Assembly: GCA_001778375.1 (NCBI GenBank) | Contig: MFGV01000018.1 | Location: forward strand, 47,022-111,021 | Length of the DNA: 64,000 bases | Reading direction: 5' to 3' | DNA from: Candidatus Firestonebacteria bacterium RIFOXYD2_FULL_39_29 | Lineage (GTDB): Bacteria > Oederibacteriota > D2-FULL-39-29 | Part shown: positions 8,041-61,574 of the stretch, piece by piece | Numbering within the stretch: position 1 is the stretch's first letter | How the letters are laid out: the number at the start of each line of letters is the position of its first letter | Program-made: the position numbers and the translations under genes | The notes under the pieces: generated by a model | The model's input: the letters and a program-made list of their open reading frames with translations, nothing else | Database searches by the model: none | Told to the model about the DNA's origin: nothing

Positions 8041-8049
8041 TTTCTGCGC

Positions 8050-10157: not shown

Positions 10158-10177
10158 AAAACCCCACTGAAAACAAA

Positions 10178-48000: not shown

Positions 48001-50938
48001 CCGTTGGATAGGAAGCTGCATTTATATTTGTAGCAATGGTGGTCCAGGTAACCAGCTGTGACCCGGTCTGTCCGGTTGCAGAGTAGACGGTGTACTCCGC
48101 ATAATTCAAAAGCGATGTCGTATCCGTGAAATCCACATTGTAAGCCGTCCCTGCAGCGGACCTCCAGGTATTGTCCCCTGCTTGATTATTTGTCACACCG
48201 GGATTACTTGTATCCTTCTTTACATAGAACACATCATTTTGCGAATAAGTATTTCCCGCGTTATCATAAGCTCTTACCGAAACATAATTCGTCCCCTGCT
48301 GTAAAGACTCATACACTACCTGCCAGTCGGTGGTATAAGAAACCGCATTAATATTTGTTGCTATTGTTGTCCAGGTGACCAGCTGCGAACCGGTTTGCCC
48401 GGTAGCAGAGTAGACGGTGTACTCCGCATAATTCAAAAGCGATGTCGTATCCGTGAAATCCACATTGTAAGCCGTCCCTGCCGCGGACCTCCAGGTATTG
48501 TCCCCTGCTTGATTATTTGTCATACCGGGATTACTTGTATCCTTCTTTACATAGAACACATCATTTTGCGAATAAGTATTTCCCGCGTTATCATAAGCTC
48601 TGACGGAAACATAATTCGTTCCCTGCTGCAAGGATGCGTAAGCCACCTGCCAGTCGGTGGTATAAGAAGCTGCATTTATATTTGTGGCTATTGTTGTCCA
48701 GGTAATCAGTTGAGAACCGGTTTGTCCGGTAGCAGAGTAGACGGAGTACTGAACGTAATTTAAATTCGCCCCGCCGGCATCCGTAAAGTCCACATTATAG
48801 GTTGTCCCTGAGGCCGCTCGCCAGGTATTATCCCCGCCCTGATTATTCGTCACACCGGGTATCGTTGTATCGCAGCCAATATCGGCAGCTGCTTCAGCAT
48901 TAGGTGTTGAAGTCGGATAAGAAACCCACGGAGAACTCCCATTTGCGCCGGTAACTCTCGCCTGCCAGTGATATACATTTCCTGTGGCAAGCGTTACGGT
49001 CACCGAACCCGTTACCGTAGATCCTGAAAAAGCAACACCGGTTCCGGTAAAATTCGCAGTTCCGGTAAAAGAAGTACCGACAGGCTTTATCTCCACCTGA
49101 GGTATTAAAGTTTCGCTTGCGAGCGGTGAGTCCATAGTAAATCTCATAACTGCTGTTGTTTCATTCGTATATTCCCCGGTTGTAAGTACTGTACTTCCAT
49201 TTGCTTTATATTGAACTAATGAAACAGGCGGTTTGGGCGGAAAGAAATATGAATATGTCCCGTTAAATACGCTTCCAAATGATGCCGCATTAGCGTTTAT
49301 GGAATAATTTGCAATAGCAGAAGTTGTTGCCTCAGTTATTTGCCCTGCATTTTTATATACCACGGAATCCCCGTGGGTTTCTGTATTTGTCCTGTGCGAA
49401 ACTGTCTGCGTGCTTGTGGAATTTATCCCCTGTGTTGTCGTATAGTCACCCGTCGTCGAATTGCCGCCGGAAACCGTTCCCTGAGTAATTTCGGCTCTTA
49501 AACCTGCATTTCTTAACGTGAGAGTACCGTTATTTGTACTGTACCAATACGGGAACCAGGTATTGAATGTCTGGTTGGAGGAGGTATTAAAACCGTCAAC
49601 TGACTGACCTGTAAAAATAGAGTAACTATTTGTAAACTTTTTACTTTCTCCGGTATAGTTATAAGTAATAATGAGTTCAACGCCGTATCCTCCTGCTCTT
49701 GCATTATCGCCAAAAGTAATAGATACCGCATCCCCGCTGCTAAAATTCACTTTTTGTTCGGAAAGATCGTGGAGGAAACTAAAACCTGAAACTTGTGCGG
49801 CAGTCACAACCATACTATACGCTCTTTGAGTTACACCAAAGCCTCCGATTGCGGAATCCAGCACGATATTCGAGGCCGTGGTATTATCATAATTACCAAA
49901 TATCAAGGCGTAGATTCTTGAAACCGACACACCCTCTTCTTCCAGATAAATATTATCAGAAACACCTGCTCCGGCCCCGCTTACAAGCTGCCCCAAGATA
50001 TAGCGTACCGTTTTAGTTTTAGTCGCAGAATTGTTATCGCATTCATAAGTAACAACACATTCACCGGAAAGCATATTCAAACTGTTCTGAGTCCAGGTAA
50101 TATCCAGCGACTGATTTGAATTTATGGTAAAACCGGTTAATCCCGTGTTTCCCTGATGATCGAGAAATTTAAAATCATACGAATCTTTAAGTCCGCCGTC
50201 CAGGATATACGTTGAAGAGCCGGAACCCTGCCCTGTAATCTTTACATTCAAACTTCCATCCGTAGTTGAACCGCCGGATTGTCTGTAACCCCTGACTTCA
50301 AACCACTGCTGTCTTACTACAACATTGCTGTCCGCAATATCCGCACGGTAAGAATAAGCTTTGGTCTGCGCGCCCAGAGCTGAAGTTGCCGCAGCAATAT
50401 TAACGTCATAATACAAAGGAAACCTTACCGTTTTTATTTGTATTGAAAAAGTATCATCATATTCATAGGTAATATAAAGTTTTAAAGAATGCCCGTTTAT
50501 AGTAGGACCCGTCACCGTTACCGATGCGGTATACTGTTGGTTGGTTAAAGCAGTAATTGCAGTGGTTACATCCGCTTTTGCATAAAATCTTGAGGCCTCA
50601 CCGGTGGGAAAAAGATATGTTCCTGTTATCGGATCTCTAACCGTGCTTGCAGAAGCTCCGGCATCAAAATTAATATCAAGTCCGGTAATATTCGCGCTTG
50701 TTGAAAGAACTCCTTCAAATTCAAGCCAGGCGCTCCGGATTGTTCTTGTTGTTTCCGGAATGTAAACATTTACGGAAGAAGGCGTCCACGCCGCGCCGCT
50801 GGCAACATTGGTTGCGCTATAATACGAACCAAAACTGTATTCAATAGTTTTAATTCTCGTTCCAGCAAATGAAGTTGCCGCGAGAATCAGTGCAAGCACC
50901 GCCGTCCTGCTAAATATGGTTAACATTTTTCTCATCAT
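22895..50938 (-). CDS. Giant (9,347-aa) secreted repeat-rich surface protein: N-terminal domain, 56 tandem ~109-aa repeats, two FN3+W-blade supermodules, LTD domains and C-terminal PQQ-like propeller
   Basis: Single uninterrupted 28,044-nt ORF with N-terminal signal peptide (MMRKMLTIFSRTAVLALILAATSFAG). The 327-bp periodicity is visible directly in the DNA and protein. Identified by motif: FN3-like (VSWTAPGDDG...YYVAIKAYD), LTD-like (INEVYSLGASAGADWVELYNDTGSDVGLSGWTL; VKINEISYHQLADEFIELNNTGGTAVTLAGYIL), and PQQ blades at the C-terminus. Confidence 0.8.
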   Translation of the reverse strand: MMRKMLTIFSRTAVLALILAATSFAGTRIKTIEYSFGSYYSATNVASGAAWTPSSVNVYIPETTRTIRSAWLEFEGVLSTSANITGLDINFDAGASASTVRDPITGTYLFPTGEASRFYAKADVTTAITALTNQQYTASVTVTGPTINGHSLKLYITYEYDDTFSIQIKTVRFPLYYDVNIAAATSALGAQTKAYSYRADIADSNVVVRQQWFEVRGYRQSGGSTTDGSLNVKITGQGSGSSTYILDGGLKDSYDFKFLDHQGNTGLTGFTINSNQSLDITWTQNSLNMLSGECVVTYECDNNSATKTKTVRYILGQLVSGAGAGVSDNIYLEEEGVSVSRIYALIFGNYDNTTASNIVLDSAIGGFGVTQRAYSMVVTAAQVSGFSFLHDLSEQKVNFSSGDAVSITFGDNARAGGYGVELIITYNYTGESKKFTNSYSIFTGQSVDGFNTSSNQTFNTWFPYWYSTNNGTLTLRNAGLRAEITQGTVSGGNSTTGDYTTTQGINSTSTQTVSHRTNTETHGDSVVYKNAGQITEATTSAIANYSINANAASFGSVFNGTYSYFFPPKPPVSLVQYKANGSTVLTTGEYTNETTAVMRFTMDSPLASETLIPQVEIKPVGTSFTGTANFTGTGVAFSGSTVTGSVTVTLATGNVYHWQARVTGANGSSPWVSYPTSTPNAEAAADIGCDTTIPGVTNNQGGDNTWRAASGTTYNVDFTDAGGANLNYVQYSVYSATGQTGSQLITWTTIATNINAASYTTDWQVAYASLQQGTNYVSVRAYDNAGNTYSQNDVFYVKKDTSNPGMTNNQAGDNTWRSAAGTAYNVDFTDTTSLLNYAEYTVYSATGQTGSQLVTWTTIATNINAVSYTTDWQVVYESLQQGTNYVSVRAYDNAGNTYSQNDVFYVKKDTSNPGVTNNQAGDNTWRSAAGTAYNVDFTDTTSLLNYAEYTVYSATGQTGSQLVTWTTIATNINAASYPTDWQVAYASLQQGTNYVSVRAYDNSGNTFSQNDVFYVKKDTGNPGITNNQTGDDTWRAAAGTTYNVDFSDATSLLNYVQYTVYSATGQTGSQLVTWTTIATNINAATYTADWQVDYASLQQGTNYVSVRAYDNTGNTLAQNDVFYVKKDTSNPGVTNNQTGDNTWRAASGTTYNVDFTDAGGANLNYAQYAVYSATGLTGSQLVTWTTIATNINAASYTTDWQVAYASLQQGSNYVSVRAYDNAGNTVSQNDVFYVKKDTGNPGVTNNQTGDDTWRAASGTTYNVDFSDATSLLSNVQYKVCSATGQTGTVLKDWTNIATGINATTYTTDWQVDYASLQAGANYVSVRAYDNAGNTFSQNDVFYVKKDSVNPGITNNQTGDDTWRAASGTTYNVDFSDATSLLNNVQYRVCAATGQTGTVLKDWTDIAAGINAATYTIDWQVDYASLQQGTNYVSVRAYDNSGNTVSQTDVFYVKKDTTAPGFTNNQTGDNTWRTSAGTSYDVDFTDASSLLNNVQYTVYSATGRTGSQFKDWTNIATGINSSSYSANWQVDYSSLQEGTNYVSVRAYDTVGNNAVQNDVFYVKKDIANPAITVSQLGDDTWRSEAGTVYNVDFSDATSLLNNVQYKVCSAAGQTGTVLKDWTNIATGINATTYTTDWQVDFASLVAGTNYVSARVYDNAGNTVSQNDVFYIKKDASAPGVTNNQTGDDTWRAAAGAVYNVDFSETGGALLSNVRYKVCAATGQTGTVLKDWTDIATGINASAYTTDWQLDFASLQQGANYVSVSAYDNAGNTVSQNDVFYVKKDSVAPGITNNQTGDDTWRTTAGTVYNTDFSDAVSQLSYVQYTIYSATGQTGTQIKPWTTFSSSINSTDYNPDWIIDFGTCQQGINYVSVRVYDNAGNTASQNDVFYVKKDTVPPLVTNNQTGDDTWRASSGTTYNVDFSDTASLLNNIQYAVYSGTGLTGSQLKNWTNIANTVSASTYTTDFTIDFSACQIGVNYISVRVYDYSTQSTTLTDAFYLKKDTTVPVITNNQTGDDTQRSSPGTTYNVDFSDAGGSLLSYAQYAVYSATGLTGSQLKTWTNIASGINASTYTADWEVDFGALNPGATNYISTRVYDSAGNSAQTNDVFYVIKAANLPTVTDNQTGDNTWRTSNNGTYNVDFASTSGANLGYFQTKVTSLSSQGGSVIQDWTTVVTNIGALNYTDNWAILASTWAALAEGVNNVSVRVYDTSGSPNMTEVSDVFFIKKDTVNPSATNNQAGDTAWRSASGTTYNVDFSDATSLLNNVQYIVYSATGQTGSLIKNWTDIAAGISSSSYTTDWTVDFASLSAGTNYVSVRVYDYASSTTVITDAFYIKKDATAPLITNNQSGDDTWRAASGATYNVDFSDAGGSLLNNVQYSVYSGTGQTGTLIKGWTDIATGINASSYDTNWQADFASLQQGLNYISVRAFDNATGTTVLTDSFYVKKDTVAPEITNNQTGDDTWKDAAGTLYNVDFSDSQSLLKSAEYAVYSGTGQTGSLLKGWTLIADNINASTYTGNWAVDFSSLSEGLNYVSVRSTDNNTNQSSLTDAFYIKKDTAGPVITNNQTGDTTWRAGPGTSYDVNFTDNFSLLSNVQYSVWTATGQTGTNAKTWTDIAVNINNAAYTGNWQVDFTALQNGENYVSVRAYDALGHVTTLTDAFFIRKDVGSPAITNNQLGDNTWRNAAGTAYNVDFNDIGNALLDRAEYSIYSATGKTGSLLKNWTVIASGINASSYTANWQVDFTALQQGTNYVSVRVYDNAGNSSALDDVFYILKDVTSPAFTNNQTGDTAWRSSAGTVYDLDFSDAGESKLSYAEYTVYSQTGLTGTPVISWTLIASLIDLNSFTTNWTVDFASLAEGTNYLSVKLHDYSTNTTTLTDAFYVKKDTLGPGITNNQTGDNTWRNTAGTSYDVDFADPGSLIAYMQYSVYSATGQTGTQLKDWTNIAASVNAATYTTNFTVDYMSLQQGTNYVCVRAYDNIGNTTLLKDAFYVKKDTVSPSAAASSPTNSSTLTFNVAFSSSDSPSGIDYVRLYYTSSNGAPYTWTSYGDFTTSPVAFTASAASVYGFRAVAFDLAGNTDETNPPSSSTGPESSTVVDLTAPSILNSQAGDNTWRNTAGTAYDVNFTDAGSSNLNYAEYTVYSGTGQTESQLVTWTTIATNINTASYTTNWQVNYSSLQQGINYVSVRVYDNAGNSAVLTDAFYVKKDVTVPSVTNNQTGDNTWRSAAGTVYNVDFSDNGSLLASAQYAVYSGTGLTGSTIIGWTNIASAINASTYTVDWSVDFASLSSGTNYVSVRVYDNAGNPETLTDAFYVKKDVTVPSVTNNQAGDNTWRSAAGTVYNVDFSDAGGSLLAAAEYSVWTATGRTGIMNKDWTAVASGINASSYTTDWAVDFTSLSQGSNYVSVRITDNAGGSLISEDVFYVKKDSTNPSITNNQTGDNTWRSINDGVYDLDLSDTGGALLSQVETKVYSGTGQTGSLMKDWTIQLSGLNVSSYTSNWGLDASTWSALQQGVNYITVKVTDNAGNSQSLTDAFYIKKDTAAPSITNNQSGDDTWRASAGTTYNVDFSDSGALLSYVQYKVCSATGQTGSVLKDWTDIASGINASSYTSDWTLDFASLLQGTNYVSVRAYDLIGNNSSLNDVFYVKKDSTAPASVTNFAASTGLEGEINVSWTAPGDDGASGTPSGYLVKLKTSGNFTGTDNDFNSAAAYSQSWGASSAGSSENHVLTGLTPALTYYVAIKAYDKAGNYGAISNLTGNFALTGSDTTAPSAITNLNAVTGDYPGQVILTWTTPGDNGSSGNLQSPANGGYTIKYSVSGQINNDTDWGNATTYAQNFVPEPAGTGESRVLSMPLSNTTYYFAVKAYDEVPNTSGLSNSSSATSGMPGAAAGVIMYGDSTNAAPRYMNWTGSAWDPQLNASNATGSIRWVAVKSCPVVRNEKIAGVLSSDGTLSILRWNGQTSTWTTEFTNTGIGSVNNIYRGFDVAYERSTGDCVVVYSKGTTTNEIGCRVWNGSVWANETTVELATTGIVRWVRLEPKTGAETLALATLDANSDIYAMIWNGSSFANGKTLTASASIATRQCYDIAWETTSGNCMIVFGDGNTPMYDYWNGNSWLAVQGAAPDTASTLNWVRLAADTKPGSNNIAFASHDGSADWNTCIWNGSAWGALPAEDSTMAASTYRCADVAWEKDSGKAVFVAVDASATQFSYITWTSGGWSTTPSVAPKDTYIWPSVLRIMSLYSDPNTNKMTLVGLDTNGNIKSRNWTGSAWVGGTAHNTAASDAAYECFGVAFDKHDITPPSIINNQAVDNTWRTSNNGSYNVDFSDAGGSLLSYFQVKVWSSTGQTGTMLADWSTAASGIAGSSYTANWALPAGVWTAMQQGINYVSVRVYDGVGNTAESADVFYVKKDTSSPVLTNNQTGDNTWRTSAGTSYNVDFSDTTSLLNTVQYIVFSGTGQTGTTIVTWTNIASGINASAYTADWQVDFAALAQGTNYVSVKAADYAGIITTTNDVFYVKKDTQAPAVANNQAGDNTWRTASGTAYNVDFTDSGNSLLNYAEYSVWSGTGQTGSQLKTWTSIATNMSTLTYTSDWQVDFTALQQGTNYVSVRVYDNAGNTGSSNDVFYIKKDTGNPGIVNNQLGDNTWRTAAGTSYDIDFNDSTSLLSSAQYIVYSATGQTGATVITWTNIATGINAGTYTSNWQVDFASLQQGSNYVSVRVYDNSGNTVSLTDAFYIKKDTANPTFTNNQTGDNTWRTAAGTTYNVDFADTGNSLLANAQYSVYSSTGMTGSTIIGWTDIASSINSSSYTTDWTVDFNTLAQGTNYVSVRVYDNAGNTNSLPDAFYVKKATQVPVITNNQTGDNTWRIAAGTAYNVDFSDAGGSLLNTASYSVYSGTGQTGSMLKNWTAIAASINASSYSIDWTVDFTSLQEGINYISVKVTDNAGITTTLQDAFYVKKDTANPVVSNSQLGDDTWRNTAGMTYNVDFSDTTALLENAQYAVYSGTGLTGSQLKDWTNIASGINLNSYTANWSVDFTALQQGSNYISVRVYDKAGNTASLNDAFYIKKDTTTPGVTNNQTGDAAWRNVSGTTYNVDFTDSGNSNLSYVEYSVYSATGRTGTQVIDWTTVATSINADSYTTDWSAAFSSLLNGTNYVSVRVFDNAGNSVISDDVFYINKDTSVPAAVNNQAGDNAWQSSAGKMYDVDFTDAGGSKLSYAEYSVWTATGQTGSNLKVWTTLASGINSNSYTSDWSLDFASLQQGTNYVSVRVYDYAGSTAATSDVFYVKKDVSKPAVSNNQLGDNTWRSTAGTLYNVDFTDSGSSLLNNVQYKICSATGQTGSVLKDWTNIASGINSNSYTSDWAIDFTALAEGANYVSVRVYDNAGLTDYSNDVFYVKKDITVPSYTNNQAGDNTWRSASGTLYNVDFSDAGGSDLSYAEYTVYTATGLTGVQVKTWTTISTNINASSYSTDWQTDFASLYEGVNYISVRAFDSAGSSVTLADAFYVKKDTAGPVITNNQTGDTSWRTAAGTTYNVDFIDNFSLLNNTQYKVCSATGQTGSVLKDWTDIAAGINAAAYTADWTVDFTALQQGTNYVSVRAYDNKSNYTGTTDAFYIKKDTTNPGVANNQLGDDTWRKQAGTTYNVDFSDNQSGLSYSEYAVYSATGKTGSNLVTWTTIATNINSSSYTTDWQVNFSALQNGINYVSVRVYDNTGYTAEVVDAFYVKKDTSAPSITDNQTGDDTVRSAPGTVYNIDFSDTGNSLISYMQYAVYNGTGLQGTNVIPWTDIATGVNASTYTDDWQVNFGALEQGVNNYVSVRVYDNAGNSAQSNDLFYIKKAIGLPSVVDNQTGDDTWRKTNTGSYNIDFLSGSGVNLSYFQVKATSAPNQGGSVYADWTNIATSINSTSYYSDWTLPAGVWNALGEGVNYISVRIYDVASNNTVTDDVFYVKKDTVNPGVTNNQAGDNTWRGSAGTAYNVDFSDSGSTLSSVQYSVYSATGQTGSQLKDWTNIASGINSSSYTTDWTVDFTALQQGTNYVSVRAYDSAGNSITSQDVFYVKKDGAVPGVTNNQTGDDSWRSASGTAYNVDFTDAGGSNLSYAEYAVYSGTGLTGSQIKNWTTIASGINVSSYTTDWQVDFASLSEGTNYVSVRAYDNAGNQVQANDAFYVKKDTINPGITNNQTGDDTWRGSSGTAYNVDFTDNGSLLNNAQYAVYSATGLTGSLVKTWTNIVTGINASSYTTDWQVDYASLSEGTNYVSVRVYDNNTNSTVVTDAFYVKKDTQGPVITNNQAGDDSWRKQSGTAYDVDISDSSSLINNLQYSVWTATGQTGSSLKDWTNIAAGINATAYNSNWVVDFSVLQEGTNYVSVRAYDYVGNTSSLTDAFYIKKDVTNPQIANQQAGDDTWRNEAGTVYNVNFTDSGNSNLSYAEYRVYSGAGSTGSLVKDWTTIAAGINAASYTTDWQVDYAALLEGSNYVSVRVYDNAGNTENQQDAFYVKKDVTVPGVTNNQTGDDTWRSAAGTVYNVDFTDAGNSGLSFVQYKIYSATGMTGSVLKDWTSIAAGINSNSYTTDWSVDFSALQEGTNYISVKAVDNAGSSVTVSDAFYVKKDVTVPGVTNNQTGDNTWRAASGTAYNVDFTDTGNSNLSYAQYRVYSGTGLSGSLVKDWTNIATGINAATYTTDWQVDYAVLLQGFNYVSVRAYDNAGSSTGATDVFYVKKDTAGPVITNNQTGDDTWRKAAGTLYNVDFSDAGSLLNNIQYKITSATGQTGVVLKDWTNISASINASTYTTNFTIDFGALSDGFTYVSVRAYDNLSNASVTNDVFYIKKDVLVPEITDSQAGDDTWRSSSGTTYNINFSDLGESNLSYFQYTVYSNAGLAGTMIKDWTTVASSIDAASYTTDWQVDFASLQQGTNYVSVRVYDNALNTAQTNDVFYVKKDTSGPVITNNQTGDDTWRSASGTVYNIDFTDTNSLLNNAEYAVYSGTGLSGSQLKNWTAIASGINASTYTTDWQVDFAALQNGTNYVSVRISDNQTSSTVLTDAFYVKKDALAPSFTNNQTGDNTWRNTAGTVYNVDFSDTGNSNLSYAQYAVYSATGKTGTLIKDWTNIATGINASSYATDWSVDYNVLADGSNYVSVRAYDNAGGVITSDDVFYVRKDSTLPVVTNNQAGDNTWRSAAGTVYDVDFTDAGGSQLSYAQYTVYSGTGLTGSTIKAWTNIASGINAGSYATNWTVDFTALSEGTNYVSVRVYDNSGNTKQQNDVFYVKKDTQGPTITNNQTGDTAWRNAAGTLYDVDFTDNGSLLNNVQYKVTTATGQTGSIRKDWTDIATGLNAATYTTNFTVDFAALQEGVNYVSVRAYDNLTNAVSQNDVFYINKDTTAPSAITNLSVSTGAEGILNLSWKAPGDDAASGTVSNYSVKYKTSAQGNFSGTDVDFNAASTYTHSWASFVAGGSTETRSITGLNANSLYYVAIKPVDKAGSLGGVSNLTGNSGTTGADVTAPSEITSLSAVTGDYAGEVNLSWTAPGDNGTGINLQAPPNGGYTVKYAPTPVTNLATWNAATTYSQSWTPVNAGVTENRTVSGLTPSTTYYFAIRAYDEVPNTGTYGNSPSAVSGAPGAAAGVIIYGSGSLTNPKYELWSGSAWGSEQTATAATATIRWVITKPCPVFRNEKMAGVLSSGGTMSVLKYDGLTNSWQTQWNVSGIGSNNSIYRGFDIAYEQTTGRCMVVYSTGAASNEIAYRIWDGTSWTNETTYDAGTTGIVYWVRLKQRSGTAEIMLATLDANSDIYALRWSGSVWGNGKTLSTAAAVNSKQCFDIAWENTSGKCMVIWGAGTGTTYDQWNGSIWLASQGTGPNIASTANWIRIASDTASSSNNIAFASLSGSSRWDVCVWTGAAWGALPAADTTMEPSDGFRADVAFEKSSGKAVAVAVDFTSTKLSYITWTSAGGWSATPAAAPKDTYDWSNHIRWVQLEPDPNQNKMTAVGIDESATIASRNWTGSAWTGGTVHNAGASDSLYRCANMCLDMHDTNPPGMTDNQAGDDTWRTSNNGTYNVDFSDAGGSLLAYNQVKVYSGTGMTGSLLSDWTNAVSGINNNSYTTDWALPSAVWTALQEGVNNISVKIVDGAGNNVIEADKFYVKKDTVAPVITNNQSGDTAWRNAAGTSYNVDFSDATSLLNNVQYTVYSATGMTGTNLVAWTNIASSINASTYTTNWTVAWSALAEGTNYVSARGYDNAGLTTLTTDAFYIRKDTVAPSNTTNLTAVPGVSRGQVKLTWTAPGDNGVSADNTAGSYIVRYSTSPIANDTDFENATDYPNTWVPVTAAAEETRYLSGLTPGVTYYFAIKTKDKANNYSALSNNPSCLPQTGNIHINEVYSLGASAGADWVELYNDTGSDVGLSGWTLVYNSGTIASPGTDVAVWTGSAGVTVTNGSVLTLGVSSNLDGNNIRYVKLKDNSNTQIDVVQWPAFTAGASDISFARISDGSNYLEKDPTPTQNALNAVTGTVKINEISYHQLADEFIELNNTGGTAVTLAGYILRGSQSVSGNNPYRKHFTFTRNIDAGSFAAVDNSSTDTGANSFTYENSFGTTNGLTSSADFVALENASGQVEDRATWQSGTPSVYYDYTGTLVLYANSAAGGLSAPNTLGRNGVDTNVDNSDFGSFATPTEGRRNSAGTQVLANTFGSPTINISRNFKISITLGENSSDGVNDTLWFVKTGGNTDTKSPHVFRLSDLGFNTAVTAPQTVTVSGAVITDIEGNKIVDGATYKLILNSDTADGAPAQVVNSAITYDASIPTGVVSDTAPVNGSANNSEKIALLKITVTSTSPAWGNNIELTSVNVKFTDGGGTLLSTAGAQGLFESVSIFRDNANTGVAGSYEPAFDTDVLAAVQNSSISLDGSGVLTMNVPLPDGSEATIQKGTSAVYFVVAELTTNAGAASPNSFKAIVDADIYLRDAYYDVTQATAASAPVSSTGVTVFAPAPPPVDSQYPATVATAVNEQITSPVAINRDTEQGLFMGSSAGKLYALNNDGSAKWTVPFETTGAISSAPQVTMENGNTFIYIANDAGYIYKIKDQGTSGTTTGGWTINLGAVVKAEPIMTGGSIYIGAANGKLFKIDDATGSVIWDTSTAISGNLTGSAAVDEFTPGVSSCWIGSEGGSLYRVNTVNGQVLSTLTTGSSIKSSPFIDGGYQFGASNNLFIPSTDGKMYCRSSVNLTLIPDGWKNRGGQEDGNYNIGSAIETVPFYWAWESPKALYFGANNGKMYKINGETGTPIWEFTTAGAIKSSPIVYNGWVYFGSDDGRCYCISASDGILRSGWPVTTGAAVKAMPVLGGWDDGFGEYTNITFTSTDGKVYALQIQ
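24950..25880 (-). other. Two lamin-tail-domain (LTD)-like modules
   Basis: INEVYSLGASAGADWVELYNDTGSDVGLSGWTL and VKINEISYHQLADEFIELNNTGGTAVTLAGYIL fit the LTD pattern I-[NT]-E-[IV]...[DE]-[WF]-[IV]-E-L-[YN]-N...[VL]-x-L-[SA]-G-[WY]-x-L. Confidence 0.5.
26905..28850 (-). other. Supermodule copy 2: two FN3-like domains plus the W-blade domain (paralogous to 38060..40010)
   Basis: Colinear with copy 1: ...NLSWKAPGDDAASG...YYVAIKPVDKAGS..., LQAPPNGGYTVKY...YYFAIRAYDEVPN..., then YELWSGSAWG, VLKYDGLTNSW, YRIWDGTSWT, ALRWSGSVWG, YDQWNGSIWL, DVCVWTGAAWG, YITWTSAGGWS, SRNWTGSAWT. It ends ...CLDMHD. Confidence 0.65.
28850..38060 (-). repeat. Tandem array C: repeats 27-54 (28 units)
   Basis: Same 109-aa consensus. 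W-variant repeats are at unit 27 (NWALPAGVWTAMQQG) and unit 41 (DWTLPAGVWNALGEG). Confidence 0.7.
38060..40010 (-). other. Supermodule copy 1: two FN3-like domains plus a ~430-aa domain with eight W-N-G-S-x-W blades
   Basis: FN3 motifs (INVSWTAPGDDGASG...YYVAIKAYDKAGNYG; VILTWTTPGDNGSSG...YYFAVKAYDEVPN). Eight spaced motifs follow: YMNWTGSAWD, ILRWNGQTSTW, CRVWNGSVWA, AMIWNGSSFA, YDYWNGNSWL, NTCIWNGSAWG, YITWTSGGWS, SRNWTGSAWV. It ends ...AFDKHDI. Confidence 0.65.
40010..41650 (-). repeat. Tandem array B: repeats 22-26
   Basis: Five consecutive 109-aa units with the same consensus. Repeat 25 is a W-variant (NWGLDASTWSALQQG). Confidence 0.7.
41650..41975 (-). other. Divergent ~105-aa beta-sandwich/FN3-like domain interrupting the repeat array
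   Basis: Translated segment SPSAAASSPTNSSTLTFNVAFSSSDSPSGIDYVRLYYTSSNGAPYTWTSYGDFTTSPVAFTASAASVYGFRAVAFDLAGNTDE does not follow the repeat consensus. Confidence 0.5.
41975..48870 (-). repeat. Tandem array A inside the giant gene: repeats 1-21 of the 327-bp/109-aa unit
   Basis: Protein repeats 1-21 share the consensus NPG[VI]TNNQ[TA]GD[DN]TWR..AGT.YNVDF[ST]D....L....Y.VYS.TG.TGS.L..WT.IA.GINA..YT.DW.VD[FY]..L..G.NYVSVR.YD..GN.....DVFYVKKD. Approximately 46200..48870 the DNA copies are near-identical. Confidence 0.75.
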
Positions 50939-51212
50939 ACAATATTATATACCATCTCCCATATTACAGTAATTATACAACATTTTTTGTACTCTGTAAT
51001 GTATTTTTTTAAACATTGGTCAATATTAGATTACACCTTAAGTTTGCAGGGTTTTACTGAATTAAGTATGACGGGAAGCAGGGGAAGTAAAAGAAGCAAA
51101 TACAGTAGAAGAAGTAGAGGAAGTGCAATCAACAAAAGAAGAAAAGAACTGATTTTTAATAGGATTTTTACTGAATGGCTTTCGTAACTTTTATTACTTC
51201 ATTTTCTTCATC

Positions 51213-51270
51213 CGCCCAGGTGGATTTCGGAAAGAAAAGTTGTTAGATATTTAGACTTTCCTCAACTCCC
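51213..51270 (+). repeat. 60-bp repeat element, copy C (giant-gene leader)
   Basis: CCGCCCAGGTGGATTTCGGAAAGAAAAGTTGTTAGATATTTAGACTTTCCTCAACTCCC. The 3' flank (ATTCCTTTGCTTCTTTTACTTCATTTACTT) is shared with copy D. Confidence 0.65.
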
Positions 51271-51509
51271 ATTCCTTTGCTTCTTTTACTTCATTTACTT
51301 CGTTTTCTGCATTTGCTTCACTTGCTTCCTTCCTCAGCTTCTCCTCGGGAATCCCGTGCAGGAGGGCTGCTTGATAGGCCCTGCATTGCATTTCCCGCAG
51401 GCAAGGGTGGAGGTTTCAAATATTTTTTGCGATTTTAAAGCAGGTTTTTGATATTTTGTTTTTTTAAGCTTCTTTTTTTTTCTCATTTTGCCACCTTATC
51501 CCGATTTTT

Positions 51510-51568
51510 CCGCCTAGGCGGATTTCGCAAAGATTTATGGTTTGATATTTAGACTTTCCTCAACTCCC
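51510..51568 (+). repeat. 60-bp repeat element, copy D (giant-gene leader)
   Basis: CCGCCTAGGCGGATTTCGCAAAGATTTATGGTTTGATATTTAGACTTTCCTCAACTCCC. Confidence 0.7.
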
Positions 51569-51647
51569 ATTCCTTTGCTTCTTTTACTTCATTTACTTTT
51601 TCTGCTTTGCTTGCTTCCCCTACTTCTCTTTTCCCACTTTCATCATC

Positions 51648-51705
51648 CACCCAGGTGGATTTCGCGAAGACTTATGGTCTGATATTTAGACTTCGCTCAA
51701 CTTTA
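51648..51705 (+). repeat. 60-bp repeat element, copy E (overlaps 3' end of peptidase ORF)
   Basis: CACCCAGGTGGATTTCGCGAAGACTTATGGTCTGATATTTAGACTTCGCTCAACTTTAC. Confidence 0.6.
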
Positions 51706-52085
51706 CTCACTACATGCATAATTTTATTATACATGTTCTCTTCTACTACACCAATTATATCACTTTTATTTATTTTATGCACTACCGAATCCTTAGAATC
51801 ACCTTCAACTGTGATCAGACCTGTTTTATTGTTCATTCCCGTTATTCTATGTATCAAGAACCATGACCGTGTTTTATAGCAGATAATAGATCCTACTTTC
51901 ACTTGTTTAGAATTTATAATTTTGATCTTAGAATTCGCCCTGATAGTCGGACTCATTGACCCGCCAAACACTTTAATACGAATACTTCCTTTATTTATTA
52001 TTTCATCAGCTATTATATCTCGAGCTATTTTTTTATTCACCCCTGGGAAATCCCCCATGAAGCAAATAGGTCGGTGTCCGGTCAT
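51672..52085 (-). CDS. S24/S26-family serine peptidase-like protein (LexA/signal-peptidase fold; Ser-His variant)
   Basis: 137 aa. VFGGSMSPTIRANSKIKIINSKQVKVGSIICYK...FLIHRITG...ITVEGDSKD matches the G-[DG]-S-M-x-P-T ... [KH]-R-[IV] ... GD pattern. His replaces the usual general-base Lys, as in SipW/Sec11-type enzymes. The last ~10 codons overlap a copy of the 60-bp repeat element. Confidence 0.4.
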   Translation of the reverse strand: MTGHRPICFMGDFPGVNKKIARDIIADEIINKGSIRIKVFGGSMSPTIRANSKIKIINSKQVKVGSIICYKTRSWFLIHRITGMNNKTGLITVEGDSKDSVVHKINKSDIIGVVEENMYNKIMHVVSKVERSLNIRP

Positions 52086-53236
52086 TAGATCACCGGAATT
52101 GTGAAGATAAACCTGCTGCCTTTCCCAAGCCCGTCAGATTCTGCCCAGAGTTTTCCTTTGTGAAGTTCTATTATTTTCTTGCAGATCGCGAGTCCAAGCC
52201 CGAAGCCCGCTTCCAGTTTTTTTAGGTGCTGATCCACACGGTAGAACTTGTCAAATACTTTTTGAAGATTTTCTGCGGCAATGCCTTTTCCGTTATCTTC
52301 CACAACAACTTTAATATCATTTTCGGATTTCTCAGCCCAGACACATACTTTCCCGTTCTCCGGAGTATATTTTACGGCATTCGTTACAAAATTAACAACG
52401 ACCCTGCCTATCTGGTCCATATCTCCTTTGAAAAGCAGCTTTTCACAGTCATATTTTTGCCCGGACAAAGAAGTTCCCATCACCACTTCAATATTCTTAA
52501 GACTTGCAACCGGTTTCACCGTGACAGGAATATCATCCATTATCTCCGGCATTTTAATATCCGTTATTTTTAATTCCCAGAAACCGGATTCCATTTTGGC
52601 AAAATCCAGAAGATTATCAATTAACTTTCTAATCTTATCCGCATTTCGACTTATCATCTTCAGGAGTTTTTGATTTTCCTGTGAATTATTCTTAATAAGC
52701 GTTTCTTCATCAACACCCTCGTCATCCATAAGCAGCTGAATTGCTCCGGAGATAGAAGCTAAAGGAGTTTTAAGTTCATGTGAAACTATGGAAAGAAATT
52801 CGTCCTTCAGCTTATCCATCTGCTGCAAAGATATAACCTGAGATTTTAGCTTCTTTGTTTCACAAGCTTTTATTATAAGCGCTATAAGCTGATCAATATT
52901 ATACGGTTTATGTATAAAATCAAAGGCACCCTTTCTCAAACTTTCAATAGCTGTTTCCATGGTACCAAAACCAGTTGCCATTATTACCTCTATTCCCGGT
53001 TTCATTTCTTTCACTTTACCAAGAACTGTTATCCCGTCCATTTCAGGCATTTTAATATCGGAAATAATAACATCAACATCCTCTTTTTCCGCTTTTTCAA
53101 CGCCAAGTTTACCATTCGCAGCTGTTAAAACATTGTAACCTTCATTCATAAGTGTAAATGAAAGCATTTCCCTTAAATCCTGTTCATCATCAATTACTAA
53201 AACCGTCCATTTTTTATCCACCTGTTCTCCTTTCAT
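52085..53236 (-). CDS. Hybrid response-regulator/histidine kinase (N-terminal receiver + HisKA + HATPase_c)
   Basis: Receiver (LVIDDEQDLREML...ISDIKMPEMDGITVL...KPYNI), then the H-box (SIVSHELKTPL), and N/G boxes (NAVKYTPENGKVCV; DNGKGIAAENLQKVFDKFYRVD; GFGLGLAICKKIIELHKGKLWAES). Confidence 0.7.
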   Translation of the reverse strand: MKGEQVDKKWTVLVIDDEQDLREMLSFTLMNEGYNVLTAANGKLGVEKAEKEDVDVIISDIKMPEMDGITVLGKVKEMKPGIEVIMATGFGTMETAIESLRKGAFDFIHKPYNIDQLIALIIKACETKKLKSQVISLQQMDKLKDEFLSIVSHELKTPLASISGAIQLLMDDEGVDEETLIKNNSQENQKLLKMISRNADKIRKLIDNLLDFAKMESGFWELKITDIKMPEIMDDIPVTVKPVASLKNIEVVMGTSLSGQKYDCEKLLFKGDMDQIGRVVVNFVTNAVKYTPENGKVCVWAEKSENDIKVVVEDNGKGIAAENLQKVFDKFYRVDQHLKKLEAGFGLGLAICKKIIELHKGKLWAESDGLGKGSRFIFTIPVI

Positions 53237-54487
53237 TTACGGATTACTTTGCTCTGTTTTCTGAGGTTCCGCCTGTGTAATCGGCAGTTTAACAACAATG
53301 TTTGTTCCCTTATCCATTTCACTGATGATTTGAATTGTTCCGCCATTTCTAGTAATTATTCCATGACACAAACTCAGTCCCAGGCCTGTACCTTTGCCTA
53401 CGTCTTTTGTGGTAAAAAACGGTTCAAAAATATGATGCTTTACGTCCTCCGACATTCCTTTTCCTGTATCCGCGACGGATATTTCGATACATTCATCAAG
53501 CTGTTTTGTGGTTATAGTTATTATCCCGCCTGAGGGCATAGCATCAACGGCATTGTTACATAGGTTCACAATAACCTGCTGTATCTGATTTTTATTCGTC
53601 AATATCTGCGGCACCTGACTATACTTTTTTGAAACCTCCACATTTTTAACCTTTGACCAGGCCTGTACCAGGGTTAACGCCTGATCAATGGCTTCATTGA
53701 TATCAATATTTTCTTTCTCAAGTTTCTCTGTTCTCGAAAACGCCAGCAGATCACTGACTATCTTTTTGCACCTTCCCGTGGCATTCTCAATTGACTTAAG
53801 CGGTTTGTACATTGGATCATCTTCTTGTACTTTCTTCAGTATAGCCTGAGAATAACCGAGTATAATAGTAAGAGGATTATTTATTTCATGCGCGACACCT
53901 CCGGCTAATTGCCCGACAGCCGCCATTTTTTCGCTTTGACGCAGCTGTTTACCGGTAGATTCAAGCTTGCTTATTGCCTCATTTAGCTTCGCATTCTTTT
54001 CTTCAAGCTTCTCATATACATGATCCATCTCCATATCCAATGCTGCTCTCATAGTATTATCCTGGAAGAAAAACACCACTCCTGTTATTTCTTTCTGCGC
54101 GTTTTTTACCGGCCCGCCAATAATATTTAATCGCAGTTTAGAAGTTTTCAATTCGGTTTCTTTTACAATGTTTTCTTTTTCCCCCTTCAAAATAGAGTCA
54201 ATAATATCTTCCAGTTCCGCTTTAGCTATGACATCTTTGCTCTCCACGGCTTCAGACAAACCTACCAATCTTTTAAACGAAGCATTAATAAAAAGAATGT
54301 TTTTCTTTACGTCAAATATTATCTGACCAACACCCAGGGCTTCCAGCGTTTCGACACCCTTCATGAATTTTACAAGCTTAGGAAGGATTTCCTCATTGAT
54401 TATTTTTTTCATCTGGAAAGGAGTAATATTATCCGAGGTGAACCCGTGTTTTTTTAACCCTGAGTCAACGATCGCTTTTGCAAACAT
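53237..54487 (-). CDS. Cytoplasmic sensor histidine kinase with PAS-like N-terminal region
   Basis: No TM segments. H-box (VAHEINNPLTIILGYSQ), N-box (NLCNNAVDAMPSGG), and G-boxes (DTGKGMSEDVKHHIFEPFFTTK; GTGLGLSLCHGIITRNGGTIQIISE). It sits directly upstream of the hybrid kinase. Confidence 0.7.
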   Translation of the reverse strand: MFAKAIVDSGLKKHGFTSDNITPFQMKKIINEEILPKLVKFMKGVETLEALGVGQIIFDVKKNILFINASFKRLVGLSEAVESKDVIAKAELEDIIDSILKGEKENIVKETELKTSKLRLNIIGGPVKNAQKEITGVVFFFQDNTMRAALDMEMDHVYEKLEEKNAKLNEAISKLESTGKQLRQSEKMAAVGQLAGGVAHEINNPLTIILGYSQAILKKVQEDDPMYKPLKSIENATGRCKKIVSDLLAFSRTEKLEKENIDINEAIDQALTLVQAWSKVKNVEVSKKYSQVPQILTNKNQIQQVIVNLCNNAVDAMPSGGIITITTKQLDECIEISVADTGKGMSEDVKHHIFEPFFTTKDVGKGTGLGLSLCHGIITRNGGTIQIISEMDKGTNIVVKLPITQAEPQKTEQSNP

Positions 54488-54574
54488 CGGATTAACAAGA
54501 GCAATTTTCGAAATTATATTATTGTATAATTCGTTTCCTATAAAACCCCCTGTAAATTTTCGAATTATTATGGT

Positions 54575-55276
54575 TTACTTTGCGCCGTCAAAAAGCTCCG
54601 GATGTTTTACTTTATAATCTTCGATATAACCGTCTATCTTCCCGGGATAGCCCATGATAAAACGGCAATATTTATCTCCTTTTGCCCTGCATAATATTTC
54701 CTTTGCAACCAATTCTATTCCAAAACTAACCTCGCACCATCCTGCGGAATATCCTGAATTCATAAAACAAACACAAATATTAGAAGATTTTTTCATGGAA
54801 ACCCAGGAATCAGCTTCAAAGGACTGCGGATGATCATATATGAGATAAAAATTTTCATCCGGAGACGGCTTGCTTTCTTCAAAAATATCCACATAGGCCC
54901 AGCCTGAATACGCAAAATGTATAGGGCCTGAAGATAATTTTGCAATCGGATCTCTTACATCCATGGATTTATGAAATGCTTTTGCATCAGCTCGCCCTAT
55001 CGACCGAGCAATATCATAGAGGATACTGCCTGTTGCCTTATTCGCTTCTATTTCTTCCAGCCCCGGGTAAAGAGTTTTGATAAATTCAAAAAATTCCACT
55101 GACATGGATGACGCCCGGAGCAATATATATCTTTCCCCTCCGATTGTTATTATTCCTTTGGCAGGATTTTCTTCGCGTAAACTGAAATACTTTTTTACAT
55201 ATTCCGCTGCCTTCTCAAACAACGGCTCCATTGCTTGTGGCACTTTTACTGTTGAAATAGTCATACCCACCCCCAA
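54575..55276 (-). CDS. Hypothetical protein, possibly V4R/XylR-N-like ligand-sensing domain protein
   Basis: 233 aa and soluble, with weak resemblance to V4R hydrocarbon-binding sensor domains (ITIGGERYILLRASSMSVEFFEFIKTL...). Low certainty. Confidence 0.2.
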   Translation of the reverse strand: MGVGMTISTVKVPQAMEPLFEKAAEYVKKYFSLREENPAKGIITIGGERYILLRASSMSVEFFEFIKTLYPGLEEIEANKATGSILYDIARSIGRADAKAFHKSMDVRDPIAKLSSGPIHFAYSGWAYVDIFEESKPSPDENFYLIYDHPQSFEADSWVSMKKSSNICVCFMNSGYSAGWCEVSFGIELVAKEILCRAKGDKYCRFIMGYPGKIDGYIEDYKVKHPELFDGAK

Positions 55277-55498
55277 ATAATCGACATTTAAAATAAATTA
55301 ATTGTATACCTTTTCAATATTCCTAGTTTACCATGCGCTTATACTCAAGAAGATACATGAGTTTATTGAAACCTATTGTAATTTTAACCTAAAAAGAGCC
55401 TATTATTCAACAAAAACCTGTCAAATAATACCAATTTTCAAACAATAATATTTGATGTTTCCAATACTCTTTTTCATCATTCGCTGCCATCGCTCAAT

Positions 55499-55560
55499 CC
55501 GCCCAGGCGGATCTTGCAAAGGGTTTATGGTCAGATATTTATACCTTTGCTCAACTCCCC
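55499..55560 (+). repeat. 60-bp repeat element, copy F (between rSAM gene and V4R-like gene)
   Basis: CCGCCCAGGCGGATCTTGCAAAGGGTTTATGGTCAGATATTTATACCTTTGCTCAACTCCCC. Confidence 0.7.
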
Positions 55561-56579: not shown

Positions 56580-56833
56580 TTTTGAATTATTTTCCCGGCA
56601 AGAAGCTCCCTAATAAAAGCAACAACATCTTTTTCTGCCCTGACCTCGGAGATATCGTATTCCGACGCAAGTTTCTTTACCATACTGTTTTCAGCGGTAT
56701 TCTTTACTAACAATTTGAAAAGAAAAGTTCCGGTTGAATTTAATTTTACCAATTTCATCTTTTCCGGCTGAACGATATAATAACTGTTCTTGATCAACCG
56801 TGCCGCCACACCGCTTTTTATTTTATACGCCAT
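56573..56833 (-). CDS. PqqD-family peptide chaperone (RRE-type) protein
   Basis: 86 aa. The pattern (YYIVQPEKMKLVKLNSTGTFLFKLLVKNTAENSMVKKLASEYDISEVRAEKDVVAFIRELLAGKII) fits PqqD/RRE (L-x-L-N-x-[ST]-[GA]...[IL]-W...[DE]-[IV]...F-[IL]-x-x-L...G-[IL]-I). It overlaps the rSAM gene start by 7 nt. Confidence 0.5.
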   Translation of the reverse strand: MAYKIKSGVAARLIKNSYYIVQPEKMKLVKLNSTGTFLFKLLVKNTAENSMVKKLASEYDISEVRAEKDVVAFIRELLAGKIIQKC

Positions 56834-61419: not shown

Positions 61420-61567
61420 TGACGTTGTTCTTCCTCTTTTCATGAGCTTACGAGGTTAGCTGTCGGGCTCGGGCTTGCGCCCTAGAAAACTTTCCATTCG
61501 CCCCAATCCCGTTTCCGGGAACTTCCTGGTTTCCCCGCTTCTGCGCTACATCCGCAGCATTAAGCAT
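61420..61567 (-). ncRNA. Candidate cyclic-di-AMP (ydaO/kimA-type) riboswitch in the 5' leader of the KimA-like transporter
   Basis: Minus-strand RNA ...GCGCAGAAGCGGGGAAACCAGGAAG...CCGGAAACGGGAUUGGGGCGAAUGG...GGGCGCAAGCCCGAGCCCGAC... contains counterparts of ydaO-class blocks (ACGGGGA-RCC, GGGGUGAAUCC-like, ACGCAAAGCCCGGG-like). It is bracketed by a sigma70-like promoter and an intrinsic terminator directly before a KimA-like gene. Confidence 0.4.
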
Positions 61568-61574
61568 GTACTTA

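Follow-up and report, generated by a model that had tools for sequence, protein, structure and literature searches.

Hairpin motifs near a giant gene of Candidatus Firestonebacteria as probable copies of a short, dispersed mobile repeat

Introduction

The insertion sequence IS608 is strand-specific, carries subterminal hairpins, has the cleavage sites TTAC and TCAA and neither gains nor loses DNA (PMC3201880). One dimer binds both of its hairpins, which are 19 and 10 nt from the cleavage sites (PMC3201880). Rickettsia palindromic elements (RPEs) are palindromic repeats that insert in frame in protein genes and are translated as surface loops (PMC10969869). REP and REPIN sequences (Enterobacteria, Pseudomonas), which are moved by RAYT transposases (Y1 HUH) whose genes usually have the repeats on either side, and MITEs (Correia/NEMIS, ERIC, Nezha) are further families of small repeats. 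STRR sequences are short tandemly repeated repetitive heptamers of heterocystous cyanobacteria.

The window analysed here is a stretch of 64,000 nt from the genome of Candidatus Firestonebacteria bacterium RIFOXYD2_FULL_39_29. Six motifs of 60 bases within it are probably copies of a dispersed, non-autonomous mobile repeat of about 56 bases, which forms two hairpins and is specific to Candidatus Firestonebacteria. As far as Rfam, the literature and BLAST against plasmids and phages show, the repeat family is without an earlier description, in agreement with the original prediction that no described element matches. It is treated here, by analogy, as a functional counterpart of REP, PATE and RPE-type elements.

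The element has in common with the IS200/IS605 ends and PATE the absence of terminal inverted repeats and of target duplication; it resembles them less clearly in its hairpins near both ends, a single structurally meaningful strand and insertion beside a short specific sequence. Its right end, TCAA, equals the right cleavage site of IS608 (PMC3201880). It differs from IS200/IS605 and PATE in that it is only 55–56 nt long with hairpins unlike each other; its boundaries abut the hairpin feet instead of lying 19 and 10 nt away as in IS608, and its conserved flank is mainly 3′ (CTYSC), whereas IS200/IS605 elements have a fixed 5′ tetranucleotide.

Like REPs and REPINs, the element is short, extragenic, multi-copy, hairpin-forming, lineage-specific, enriched behind genes and non-coding. 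Unlike REPs, it has no conserved GTAG-type 5′ tetranucleotide (the flank logo gives T-Y-(A/T) only), and where a REP has a single imperfect palindrome, it has two hairpins and a long conserved loop. Its copies are mostly single and co-oriented, in contrast to the inverted doublets of REPINs. The likeness to RPEs lies in a copy in frame in a radical SAM gene (L073; L numbers denote sites outside the window), but only 1 of 57 sites is of this kind, whereas RPEs are about 100–150 bp long, frequently intragenic and of the Rickettsia lineage, and the sequences are unrelated. MITEs are likewise small, non-autonomous and of high copy number, and one subfamily of the element lies inside a true MITE; the 56-nt unit itself, unlike a strict MITE, lacks both terminal inverted repeats and target-site duplications, and only its 290-bp carrier has terminal inverted repeats. 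The resemblance to STRR in size and location concerns the intergenic 7-nt and 9-nt arrays that flank the element as apparent insertion hosts, not the element, and the sequences are unrelated.

Results

Copies in the window

A covariance scan of the whole window, with filters off, yielded six copies scoring 64–85 bits, all on the + strand, as had been predicted for the 64 kb. The next-best matches in the window reached at most 16 bits and were the palindromic hairpin read backwards, and the chance expectation of the motif in the window was 0.00 in pattern searches. All copies are antisense to their neighbours because all long ORFs of the window are on the − strand. The statement that all are intergenic is limited by three facts: copies E and F each overlap an ORF end, and an unannotated 50-aa ORF lies between copies D and C.

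Copy A (7906–7962, 63.9 bits with model R1) is the most diverged, has hairpin 1 as TCAGCC/GGTGGA with the loop TACATATAAAC, and is located between a Wzz/GNVR kinase gene and a Poly_export gene. The orthologous gap in L067 contains the element in the opposite orientation. Copy B (8929–8985, 82.3 bits) is a long variant (GCAAAGG...CCTTTGC) placed 40 nt behind the stop of ORF 9027–10157, with a CT-rich 9-nt array (8899–8927, + strand, detected with TRF) immediately 5′ of it; its orthologous gap in L073 is 44 nt long and holds no copy. Copy F (55498–55554, 75.2 bits) is also a long variant, with the linker GGATCTTG. A radical SAM/SPASM ORF ends in the GCTCAA of this copy, and its TGA stop (55551–55553, − strand) is the TCA of GCTCAA.

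Copies C, D and E lie upstream of the giant gene. A long inverted repeat separates the small peptide ORF from the giant-gene promoter, and copy C (51211–51265, 77.2 bits), with stem 2 as GGAAAG/CTTTCC and a G.T pair in hairpin 1, is in its apical part. Copy D (51509–51563, 84.7 bits) is a chimera whose 5′ half is of the GCAAAG type and whose 3′ half matches copy C exactly, the identity extending over 54 nt of flank; the C.C mismatch in its stem 2 is due to this chimeric origin. Copy E (51646–51700, 83.6 bits; stem 2 GCGAAG/CTTCGC, hairpin 1 CCACC/GGTGG) provides the final 10 codons and the stop of an S24-like ORF (51672–52085). These copies had been described as tandem, with a sub-duplication of about 300 bp. 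The sub-duplication is present (118 nt, 51211–51328 against 51509–51626, 83% identical, period 298), but the copies are not in tandem, being spaced by 298 and 137 nt. The contig L074, identical in other respects, lacks copy D together with 240 nt. Recombination between copies gave rise to both this 298-bp indel and the chimeric copy D.

Structure and covariation

The unit, as bounded by the comparison of filled with empty orthologous sites, is 55–56 nt long and runs from TCCRCC to GCTCAA with the layout 5′-TCCRCC-YAGG-GGYGGA-TTTC-GCAAAG-(conserved loop of 20–22 nt, TTAWGGT..GATATTTAKAC)-CTTTGC-TCAA-3′. The two hairpins differ from one another, and the termini TCCRCC... and ...GCTCAA are not complementary, so that terminal inverted repeats are absent. 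The predicted pairing of a palindrome with a stem around a conserved AT-rich loop was recovered, with a stem of 5–7 bp where 7 bp had been given.

Covariation across copies, proposed earlier as a check, was found in both stems. Pair 8-15 was GC in 29, AU in 10, GU in 9 and AC in 0 copies; pair 24-56 was CG in 39, GC in 5 and AU in 1; and pair 25-55 was AU in 40 and GC in 8. The covariation score was matched by 0 of 500 shuffles, and slid controls were all far lower. At L001, L047 and L055 the pairing of stem 2 is kept through a change from GCAAAGG/CCTTTGC to GAGAAAAAG/CTTTTTCTC. G.U exceeded A.C on the element strand by 13 to 3, and this strand folded better than its complement in 46 of 54 unique cores (−15.7 against −13.4 kcal/mol). 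By its G.T intermediates and its better folding, one strand stands out as structured. Hairpins of single-stranded DNA on one strand are a criterion of IS200/IS605 elements (PATE); here the hairpins are dissimilar and stand at the very ends, and the data fit DNA or RNA alike. Loop and linker are conserved in addition to the stems, even in copies outside the pattern selection.

Several other features were sought in the unit and rejected. An inner loop stem GTCT/AGAC showed no consistent covariation in the alignment. A small ORF from the loop ATG stops after 2 codons in copies D and E, and the MITE-borne variant lacks this ATG. No sigma-70 promoter met the scan criteria on either strand of the element, the hexamers being poor and the spacing wrong by eye, and a sigma-54 promoter was rejected on reading the sequence because of unfit GG/GC spacing. 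No intrinsic terminator was found on either strand in 50800–51800, where a U tract is absent; the sequence after hairpin 1 is ATTTCG on the + strand and rich in A and G on the − strand. No tRNA or tmRNA relic was found by ARAGORN. GCTCAAC fits the RYYYAAC of an integron attC site, in which complementary RYYYAAC and GTTRRRY core sites bracket the hairpin, but element and flank contain no complementary GTTGAGC.

Distribution

A pattern scan of the genome collection gave 29 loci, 23 of them in Firestonebacteria MAGs. Hairpin 1, which was absent from the search pattern, was present in all 23 of these and missing in the other 6. A metagenome scan gave 42 further loci. Covariance model R1 produced about 84 strong matches, which were reduced to 57 non-redundant sites in Candidatus Firestonebacteria MAGs, representing several genomes, and related metagenome contigs. 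Fifty-five of the 57 sites are extragenic or touch gene ends only, and 1 is in frame within a gene. Viral, plasmid and phage collections gave zero matches (BLAST for plasmids and phages). The sole match of Rfam 15 over the window was a c-di-AMP riboswitch at 61429–61576, outside the element; nothing credible was obtained from Rfam in 50900–51760 at E up to 10. Searching the text of the literature for the motif strings returned chance matches in unrelated papers only.

Insertion sites

Filled and empty orthologous sites differ by precise insertion of the exact unit, with no target duplication, at 5′-TYA^CTY(S)-3′. Three junctions only are clean: GCTTTT^CTTCGC (L005 against L039), CCTCA^CTTTAC (copy E against L075, where the orthologous S24 gene has the clean empty site GTGAGTAAAG^TGAGGAAAG) and TTATTCA^CTTTAC (L007 against a paralogous flank in L048). 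The site L012 also has an empty orthologous gap, in L033. The flank logo reads T at −3, Y at −2 and A/T at −1, followed by C T Y S C; the left part, T-Y-(A/T), occurs in about 85% of sites, and conservation is stronger on the right, in C-T-Y-S-C. Insertion is mostly in CT-rich 9-nt satellite arrays behind genes, and the 9-nt arrays that trail many stop codons in these genomes recurrently carry the insertion motif on their CT-rich strand. The in-frame copy in the radical SAM gene of L073 stands beside a 9-mer array common to all three orthologues.

One subfamily lies inside a 290-bp MITE with 24-bp terminal inverted repeats (L008, L018 and others), copies of which occur both with and without the unit. 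The empty junction of this MITE differs by about 10 nt and is not clean, so it was not counted as an empty site. Between L003 and L037 the core is identical at 63 of 64 positions, adjacent coding DNA at about 80%, and the non-coding flank is unalignable. The prediction of a REP-like structured element is supported by the multi-copy, lineage-wide and mostly extragenic occurrence of the unit, its stem covariation and its insertion polymorphism.

Region upstream of the giant gene

The copies had been proposed as leader and controller of the giant gene. This was not borne out: they lie upstream of a conserved promoter-like box and flank a separate, conserved 50-aa gene, copy number at the locus varies in relatives, and the same element adjoins dozens of unrelated genes. 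Copy number is 3 in the window, 2 in L074, 1 in L075 and 0, with a decayed relic, in L077. The promoter-like box ATTACA-17-TATAAT (50972–51000, − strand), about 35–60 nt from the giant-gene ATG and downstream of all three copies, is kept in L075 and L077, and the proximal 95 nt of the giant gene, promoter-like in character, are conserved while copy number varies.

The 50-aa ORF (MRKKKKLKKTKYQKPALKSQKIFETSTLACGKCNAGPIKQPSCTGFPRRS; 51334–51486, − strand) lies outside the element. Its homologues are 85% and 68% identical, with the same position in L075 and L077, and an element copy stands behind it in both the window and L075. Copy C has a counterpart at the same place in L075 and none in L077. 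The 3′ flanks of copies C and D contain CT-rich 9-nt arrays on the + strand, with the units TTCATTTGC (51272–51328, 6.3 copies) and TTCATTTAC (51570–51598), respectively. The first forms one arm of an inverted repeat whose partner is a GA-rich 9-nt array at 51083–51140 (+ strand; all three detected with TRF). These arms, 51083–51140 and the copy C flank array, form a long hairpin on the − strand RNA with a fold z of −3.7; the counterpart in L077 reaches z = −5.5 without any element. The three copies would be passengers in a repeat-rich spacer that also holds the small peptide gene and the long hairpin. Knowledge of giant-gene control is left unchanged by the finding.

Discussion

Conserved loop and linker and orthologous copies that look maintained are also expected of a host-useful RNA or a protein-binding element. 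The element, perhaps with the 9-mer arrays, might accordingly be retained because its transcribed hairpins act for the host, which may coexist with mobility. Candidate roles are protection of upstream mRNA 3′ ends, as by E. coli REPs, the marking of a processing site, and, when the element strand is read together with the C/U-rich, G-poor 9-mers that follow, a Rho stop of antisense transcription. The element is antisense in 30 of 39 gaps between co-directional genes, with its 3′ end and the stop codon of the upstream gene separated by a median of about 40 nt. This placement, the conservation of sequence beyond the stems, the compensatory evolution at apparently orthologous copies (L001/L047/L055; copy C against L075), the recurrent copy behind the peptide ORF and the better folding of the element strand all speak for such a role. 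The better-folding strand, however, is antisense to most genes, so the form carried by the mRNA is the weaker one, and 10 of 55 unique copies have A.C mismatches in it. Neither strand has a U-tract terminator or a promoter, orientation is flipped at one orthologous gap, close relatives differ in presence and absence of the element while neighbouring genes are unchanged, and 9-mer arrays exist without it. A host function of the RNA is on balance considered unlikely.

The original prediction of a clustered regulator-binding site is far less probable. In this reading a regulator or nucleoid protein would bind TCCGCCTAGGCGGA, the palindrome, and the conserved loop as duplex sites, and the three copies upstream of the giant gene would set its expression. 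The palindrome is a perfect one of 14 bp in several copies, three copies lie less than 770 bp upstream of the giant gene, and genes for two-component and V4R regulators are nearby. But symmetric positions co-vary (G-C to A-T via G.T), and such compensatory substitution preserves pairing and not a recognisable double-stranded sequence with a base-specific contact surface. The locus has 3, 2, 1 or 0 copies in relatives with the promoter-like 95 nt conserved, the copies are mostly at 3′ ends of unrelated genes, and one is within a coding region.

The copies might also be small RNA genes of one family, read from the + strand and antisense to the operons around them. Strand-specific G.U pairs and the several paralogous copies, as some small RNA families have, favour this reading, but it is highly improbable and found no support: there is no conserved upstream promoter (5′ flanks are unrelated except for being T-rich), no terminator and no Rfam match even at E = 10, and copies sit within a MITE, in frame inside a gene and in either orientation.

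The mobile repeat, which is the preferred reading, would move via a single-stranded DNA intermediate of the HUH type. A trans-acting enzyme that recognises the hairpins would cleave 3′ of TYA/TCAA, like the HUH transposases (IS200/IS605 TnpA, RAYT, IS91); the model for this analogy is IS608 (PMC3201880). If the target motif lay on the antisense strand of the 3′ arrays, the antisense orientation of about three quarters of the copies in co-directional gaps, and of all six in the window, would follow. In a tblastn search, IS608 TnpA and E. coli RAYT had no match in about 0.6 Mb, a small part of each genome, which is a weak test. An ORF between inverted copies in L059 was considered as a transposase and rejected, as it encodes a SIS-domain sugar isomerase. 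The dissimilar hairpins, the cut sites abutting their feet and the small number of clean junctions also count against the mobile reading.

Two further readings are put forward only tentatively and are both doubtful. The 56-nt unit may be among the shortest self-contained bacterial transposable units, served by an enzyme not recognisable as IS200/IS605 or RAYT and homing to TYA^CTY in 9-nt arrays; or element and arrays may together have been domesticated as a module shaping transcript ends throughout Firestonebacteria, including those in the spacer between a RiPP-like peptide gene and the giant gene of 9,347 aa.

The family adds to a candidate phylum known from metagenomes only an interspersed repeat that is well defined by its exact boundaries, its target motif and a covariance model. 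Repeats of this kind break assemblies, and here a gene is lost with the 298-bp indel; gene callers are misled by them, with ORFs extended into elements and the 50-aa peptide gene missed; and they can pass for regulatory leaders, as with the copies at the giant gene. The precise, duplication-free and strand-specific insertions point to a candidate single-strand DNA transposition system in the phylum. With its in-frame copy, the radical SAM enzyme adds a second, independent case to in-frame insertion as known from Rickettsia palindromic elements.

A point against the proposed movement comes from base composition: on the + strand, GC skew stays negative over the whole window, where it is inseparable from gene orientation. 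Should the genes lie on the leading strand, the structured strand would serve as its template, contrary to the rule for IS608.

Element copies in the window

The repeat, a 55-56-nt two-hairpin unit running TCCRCC...GCTCAA, was matched six times on the + strand of the window, against 0.00 matches expected from shuffles (reading of 50700-52000; searches with ≤3 mismatches gave five, then six). The copies lie at 7906-7962 (A), 8929-8985 (B), 51211-51265 (C), 51509-51563 (D), 51646-51700 (E) and 55498-55554 (F). A scan of the whole window with R1, the covariance model built from the element, was run with filters off and yielded six matches (64-85 bits), every one on the + strand; the remaining matches (≤16 bits) were only the palindromic hairpin 1 read on the opposite strand. 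All long ORFs of the window are on the - strand, including the 9,347-aa ORF at 22895-50938 (the giant gene), so that every copy runs antisense to its neighbours. Pattern search, R1 scan and ORF map thus bear out the six antisense + strand copies of the original prediction. Its description of all copies as intergenic does not hold for E and F, each of which runs into the final codons of an upstream gene; in copy F, the TCA of GCTCAA doubles as the radical SAM ORF's TGA stop. Ahead of the giant gene, the three copies had been called tandem and are instead spaced by 298 and 137 nt. The sub-duplication of about 300 bp noted there is real (118 nt, 51211-51328 versus 51509-51626, 83% identical, period 298). 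Copy D is a chimera whose 3' half, together with 54 nt of flanking sequence, is identical to that of copy C.

Anatomy and fold

Alignments and folds resolved hairpin 1, (A)TCCRCC-YAGG-GGYGGA(T), a TTC linker, hairpin 2, GCAAAG(G)-N20-22-(C)CTTTGC, and a 3' tail, TCAA(C). Covariation was scored in 48 unique cores, in which pairs 8-15, 24-56 and 25-55 were unconstrained by the search patterns. Pair 8-15 was GC in 29 cores, AU in 10, GU in 9 and AC in 0; pair 24-56 was CG in 39, GC in 5, AU in 1 and other in 3; pair 25-55 was AU in 40 and GC in 8, with 0 mismatches. Stem covariation across copies, the check suggested with the original prediction, was present, its score being reached by 0 of 500 shuffles. 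Pairing was 94.9% in the true register versus 20-54% in slid controls. On the element strand, 13 G.U were counted versus 3 A.C in the model-based alignment (one of the three A.C was a false hit), and this strand folded more stably than its complement in 46 of 54 unique cores (-15.7 versus -13.4 kcal/mol). The structure of the element is under selection, on one strand. The G.U excess and the better folding identify the window's + strand, antisense to the genes, as the structured one. The structured molecule may be RNA or single-stranded DNA, which fit the data alike.

Distribution and classification

A genome collection was scanned with a pattern that defined the linker and loop only. It returned 29 loci, 23 of them from three Candidatus Firestonebacteria MAGs. 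Hairpin 1 was found in 23/23 of these although absent from the pattern; it was missing from the other six loci (Bacteroidota, Sporosarcina and others), which were rejected as chance matches. A metagenome scan gave 42 further loci. On 0.53 Mb, R1 produced ~84 strong matches, including diverged copies that the patterns missed, with more in later context loci; 57 sites remained after removal of duplicate contigs. The element was not found in IMG/VR, plasmids or phages, and a text search of the literature found the motif strings in no relevant paper. The window was placed in the Firestonebacteria lineage on the basis of synteny with Firestonebacteria contig JAZDIO010000154 (~78% nucleotide identity) and of its S24-like protein, which shares 65% identity with a protein assigned by name to Firestonebacteria. 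The element is a dispersed family of this one phylum.

Rfam contains no family for the element, whether at gathering thresholds or with E as high as 10, no tRNA-like gene lies in it, and neither strand carries a promoter-like site. It failed the defining tests of an integron attC site and of an intrinsic terminator (no terminator-like site, either strand), lacks the terminal inverted repeats and target duplications of a strict MITE, and is not a REP by definition, there being no GTAG at the element. It works like REP and PATE elements, and like RPE elements in one case only (PMC10969869). The REP-like reading originally offered is supported by the dispersed multi-copy hairpin family, covarying stems and insertion variation. 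The element is a small interspersed hairpin repeat, of a kind not previously described in this phylum.

Filled, empty and inverted sites

Window copies were compared with loci from the scans (L-numbers). Between L005 and L039, whose flanks are 84% identical, exactly TCCGCC...GCTCAA is inserted at GCTTTT^CTTCGC with no duplication. At copy E, the L075 S24 gene reads GTGAGTAAAG^TGAGGAAAG and the window carries the 55-nt unit at the caret. L007 and a paralogous flank copy in L048 give the junction TTATTCA^CTTTAC. The gap that holds copy B is 294 nt long, and its 44-nt counterpart in L073 is empty; a copy in L012 and its 9-mer array are both missing in L033. In L067, the orthologue of window 7006-8674 at 81% identity, the copy-A gap holds a copy in inverted orientation. 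In L073, a copy and GA-rich 9-mers are translated in frame in a radical SAM enzyme directly past the CxxxCxxC motif; the orthologues of the window and L075 have a 9-mer array at that place without the element. The element moves: several orthologous or paralogous pairs differ by its presence. Flanks over 57 sites have the consensus T-Y-(A/T) / element / C-T-Y-S-C.

Twelve identical copies lie inside a ~290-bp MITE-like carrier with 24-bp terminal inverted repeats (AAGTGGAGTTTCCCTATTTTCTGT ... ACAGAAAACAGGCAAACTCCACTT). The carrier occurs with the unit in L008 (~70-300), L018 (4410-4720), L028, L010 and L006, and without it in L064 (2021-2181), L062 (1260-1419) and L012 (2748-2909). A second palindromic repeat family, GTCCACCTTCGGTGAGATCTCGCCTGAAGGCGGAT with centre GAGATCTC, was seen within some MITE copies and in intergenic gaps (L005 ~2330-2365, L010, L018, L026, L045, L067 ~1000-1045); a related GGCGGATCTCTCGTAGAGA motif lies upstream of the Poly_export gene at window ~8755-8800.

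Satellite arrays and orientation

Tandem arrays of CT-rich 9-nt units such as TTTACTTGC adjoin ~40% of copies. They also occur in element-free intergenic gaps at window 20494-20537, 12350-12390, 13868-13889, 62661-62690 and 22827-22895, the last just past the giant gene's stop. Read on the sense strand they are GA-rich, and they fill many gaps right behind stop codons. The TYA^CTY target motif is a sub-string of their CT-rich strand; array orientation would then dictate element orientation, which would place the element antisense behind genes. In gaps between co-directional genes 30 copies were antisense and 9 sense; 7 lay between divergent genes (mostly MITE-borne) and 4 between convergent genes.

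The window array at 8899-8927 is also of the CT-rich 9-nt type, and related GA-rich 9-mers are in frame in a loop of the window radical SAM enzyme (56431-56452). A second satellite class has a 7-nt period (ATTGACA / AAATTGT types; window 8011-8037, 10176-10197, 13221-13251, 13336-13358, 15404-15434, 15530-15562), and another 7-nt type (CCGTAAC/CCGCTAC) adjoins sense-oriented copies in L011, L015, L016 and L067. These 7-nt satellites recall the STRR heptamers of cyanobacteria.

Mechanism of movement

Family status, boundaries, absent duplication, target motif and strand asymmetry were observed directly. Movement is inferred to proceed by single-strand DNA transposition with an HUH-type enzyme acting in trans, since the element resembles IS608, which is top-strand-specific, has subterminal hairpins and is cleaved 3' of TTAC and TCAA with DNA neither gained nor lost (PMC3201880). 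Counted against this, the two hairpins of the element are unlike each other, its cut sites abut the hairpin feet, and the structured strand is the C-rich one. Tblastn of ~0.6 Mb with IS608 TnpA and E. coli RAYT sequences, a weak test, found no transposase. Loop conservation, and compensatory changes between copies that share a locus, favour a possible host-level RNA role, as an antisense insulator or in REP-like protection of 3' ends, which could coexist with mobility; strand asymmetry, the orientation flip and presence/absence variation among relatives speak against that role.

Upstream region of the giant gene

The original prediction took 50939-51705 as a leader through which the element might control the giant gene. 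This region is not a leader, and such control is unsupported: copy number at the locus is 3 in the window, 2 in L074, 1 in L075 and 0 in L077 (where a decayed relic is left), while the 95 nt nearest the giant-gene ATG, including ATTACA-17-TATAAT at 51000-50972, are conserved in L075 and L077. Upstream of this promoter-like box, GA-rich/CT-rich 9-mer arrays form a long imperfect inverted repeat (51083-51140 versus 51272-51329). Its RNA fold has z = -3.7, and z = -5.5 for the element-free L077 counterpart (2005-2215). The repeat lies directly behind a peptide ORF and could act as a terminator, an attenuator or a processing hairpin.

That unannotated ORF of 50 aa (51334-51486, -; MRKKKKLKKTKYQKPALKSQKIFETSTLACGKCNAGPIKQPSCTGFPRRS) has a ribosome-binding site and homologues 85% and 68% identical; differences from L075 are mostly synonymous. 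The order S24/S26-like peptidase, 50-aa peptide, giant gene is always kept, and in L075 the S24 ORF runs in frame into the peptide ORF. Because HprK-like/ScmC-like, PqqD and radical SAM/SPASM genes are nearby, the ORF is a plausible candidate RiPP precursor. L074, a contig from JGI sample 3300009296, differs from window 50880-51760 only by a clean 298-bp indel (window 51215-51616) that removes copy D and the entire peptide ORF; this fits recombination between direct repeats and a real population variant, or possibly a repeat-induced assembly artefact.

The order PqqD, radical SAM/SPASM, S24-like peptidase, giant gene is found in the window (51672-57516), L073, L075, L077 and an Endomicrobiia/Elusimicrobiota MAG (L072), whose giant protein is 43% identical at the N-terminus. 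That the order recurs in this MAG suggests a functional link between the giant protein and the peptide-maturation cassette. A Pfam search of the window protein's first 1,000 residues found no domain. At 45589-48859 the giant gene is internally repetitive, with a 327-nt (109-aa) unit in ten tandem copies, 75% matching. Elsewhere in the window, a c-di-AMP riboswitch (ydaO/yuaA type) was detected at 61429-61576 (-), with 68 bits versus a gathering score of 38, upstream of the ORF at 59349-61367.
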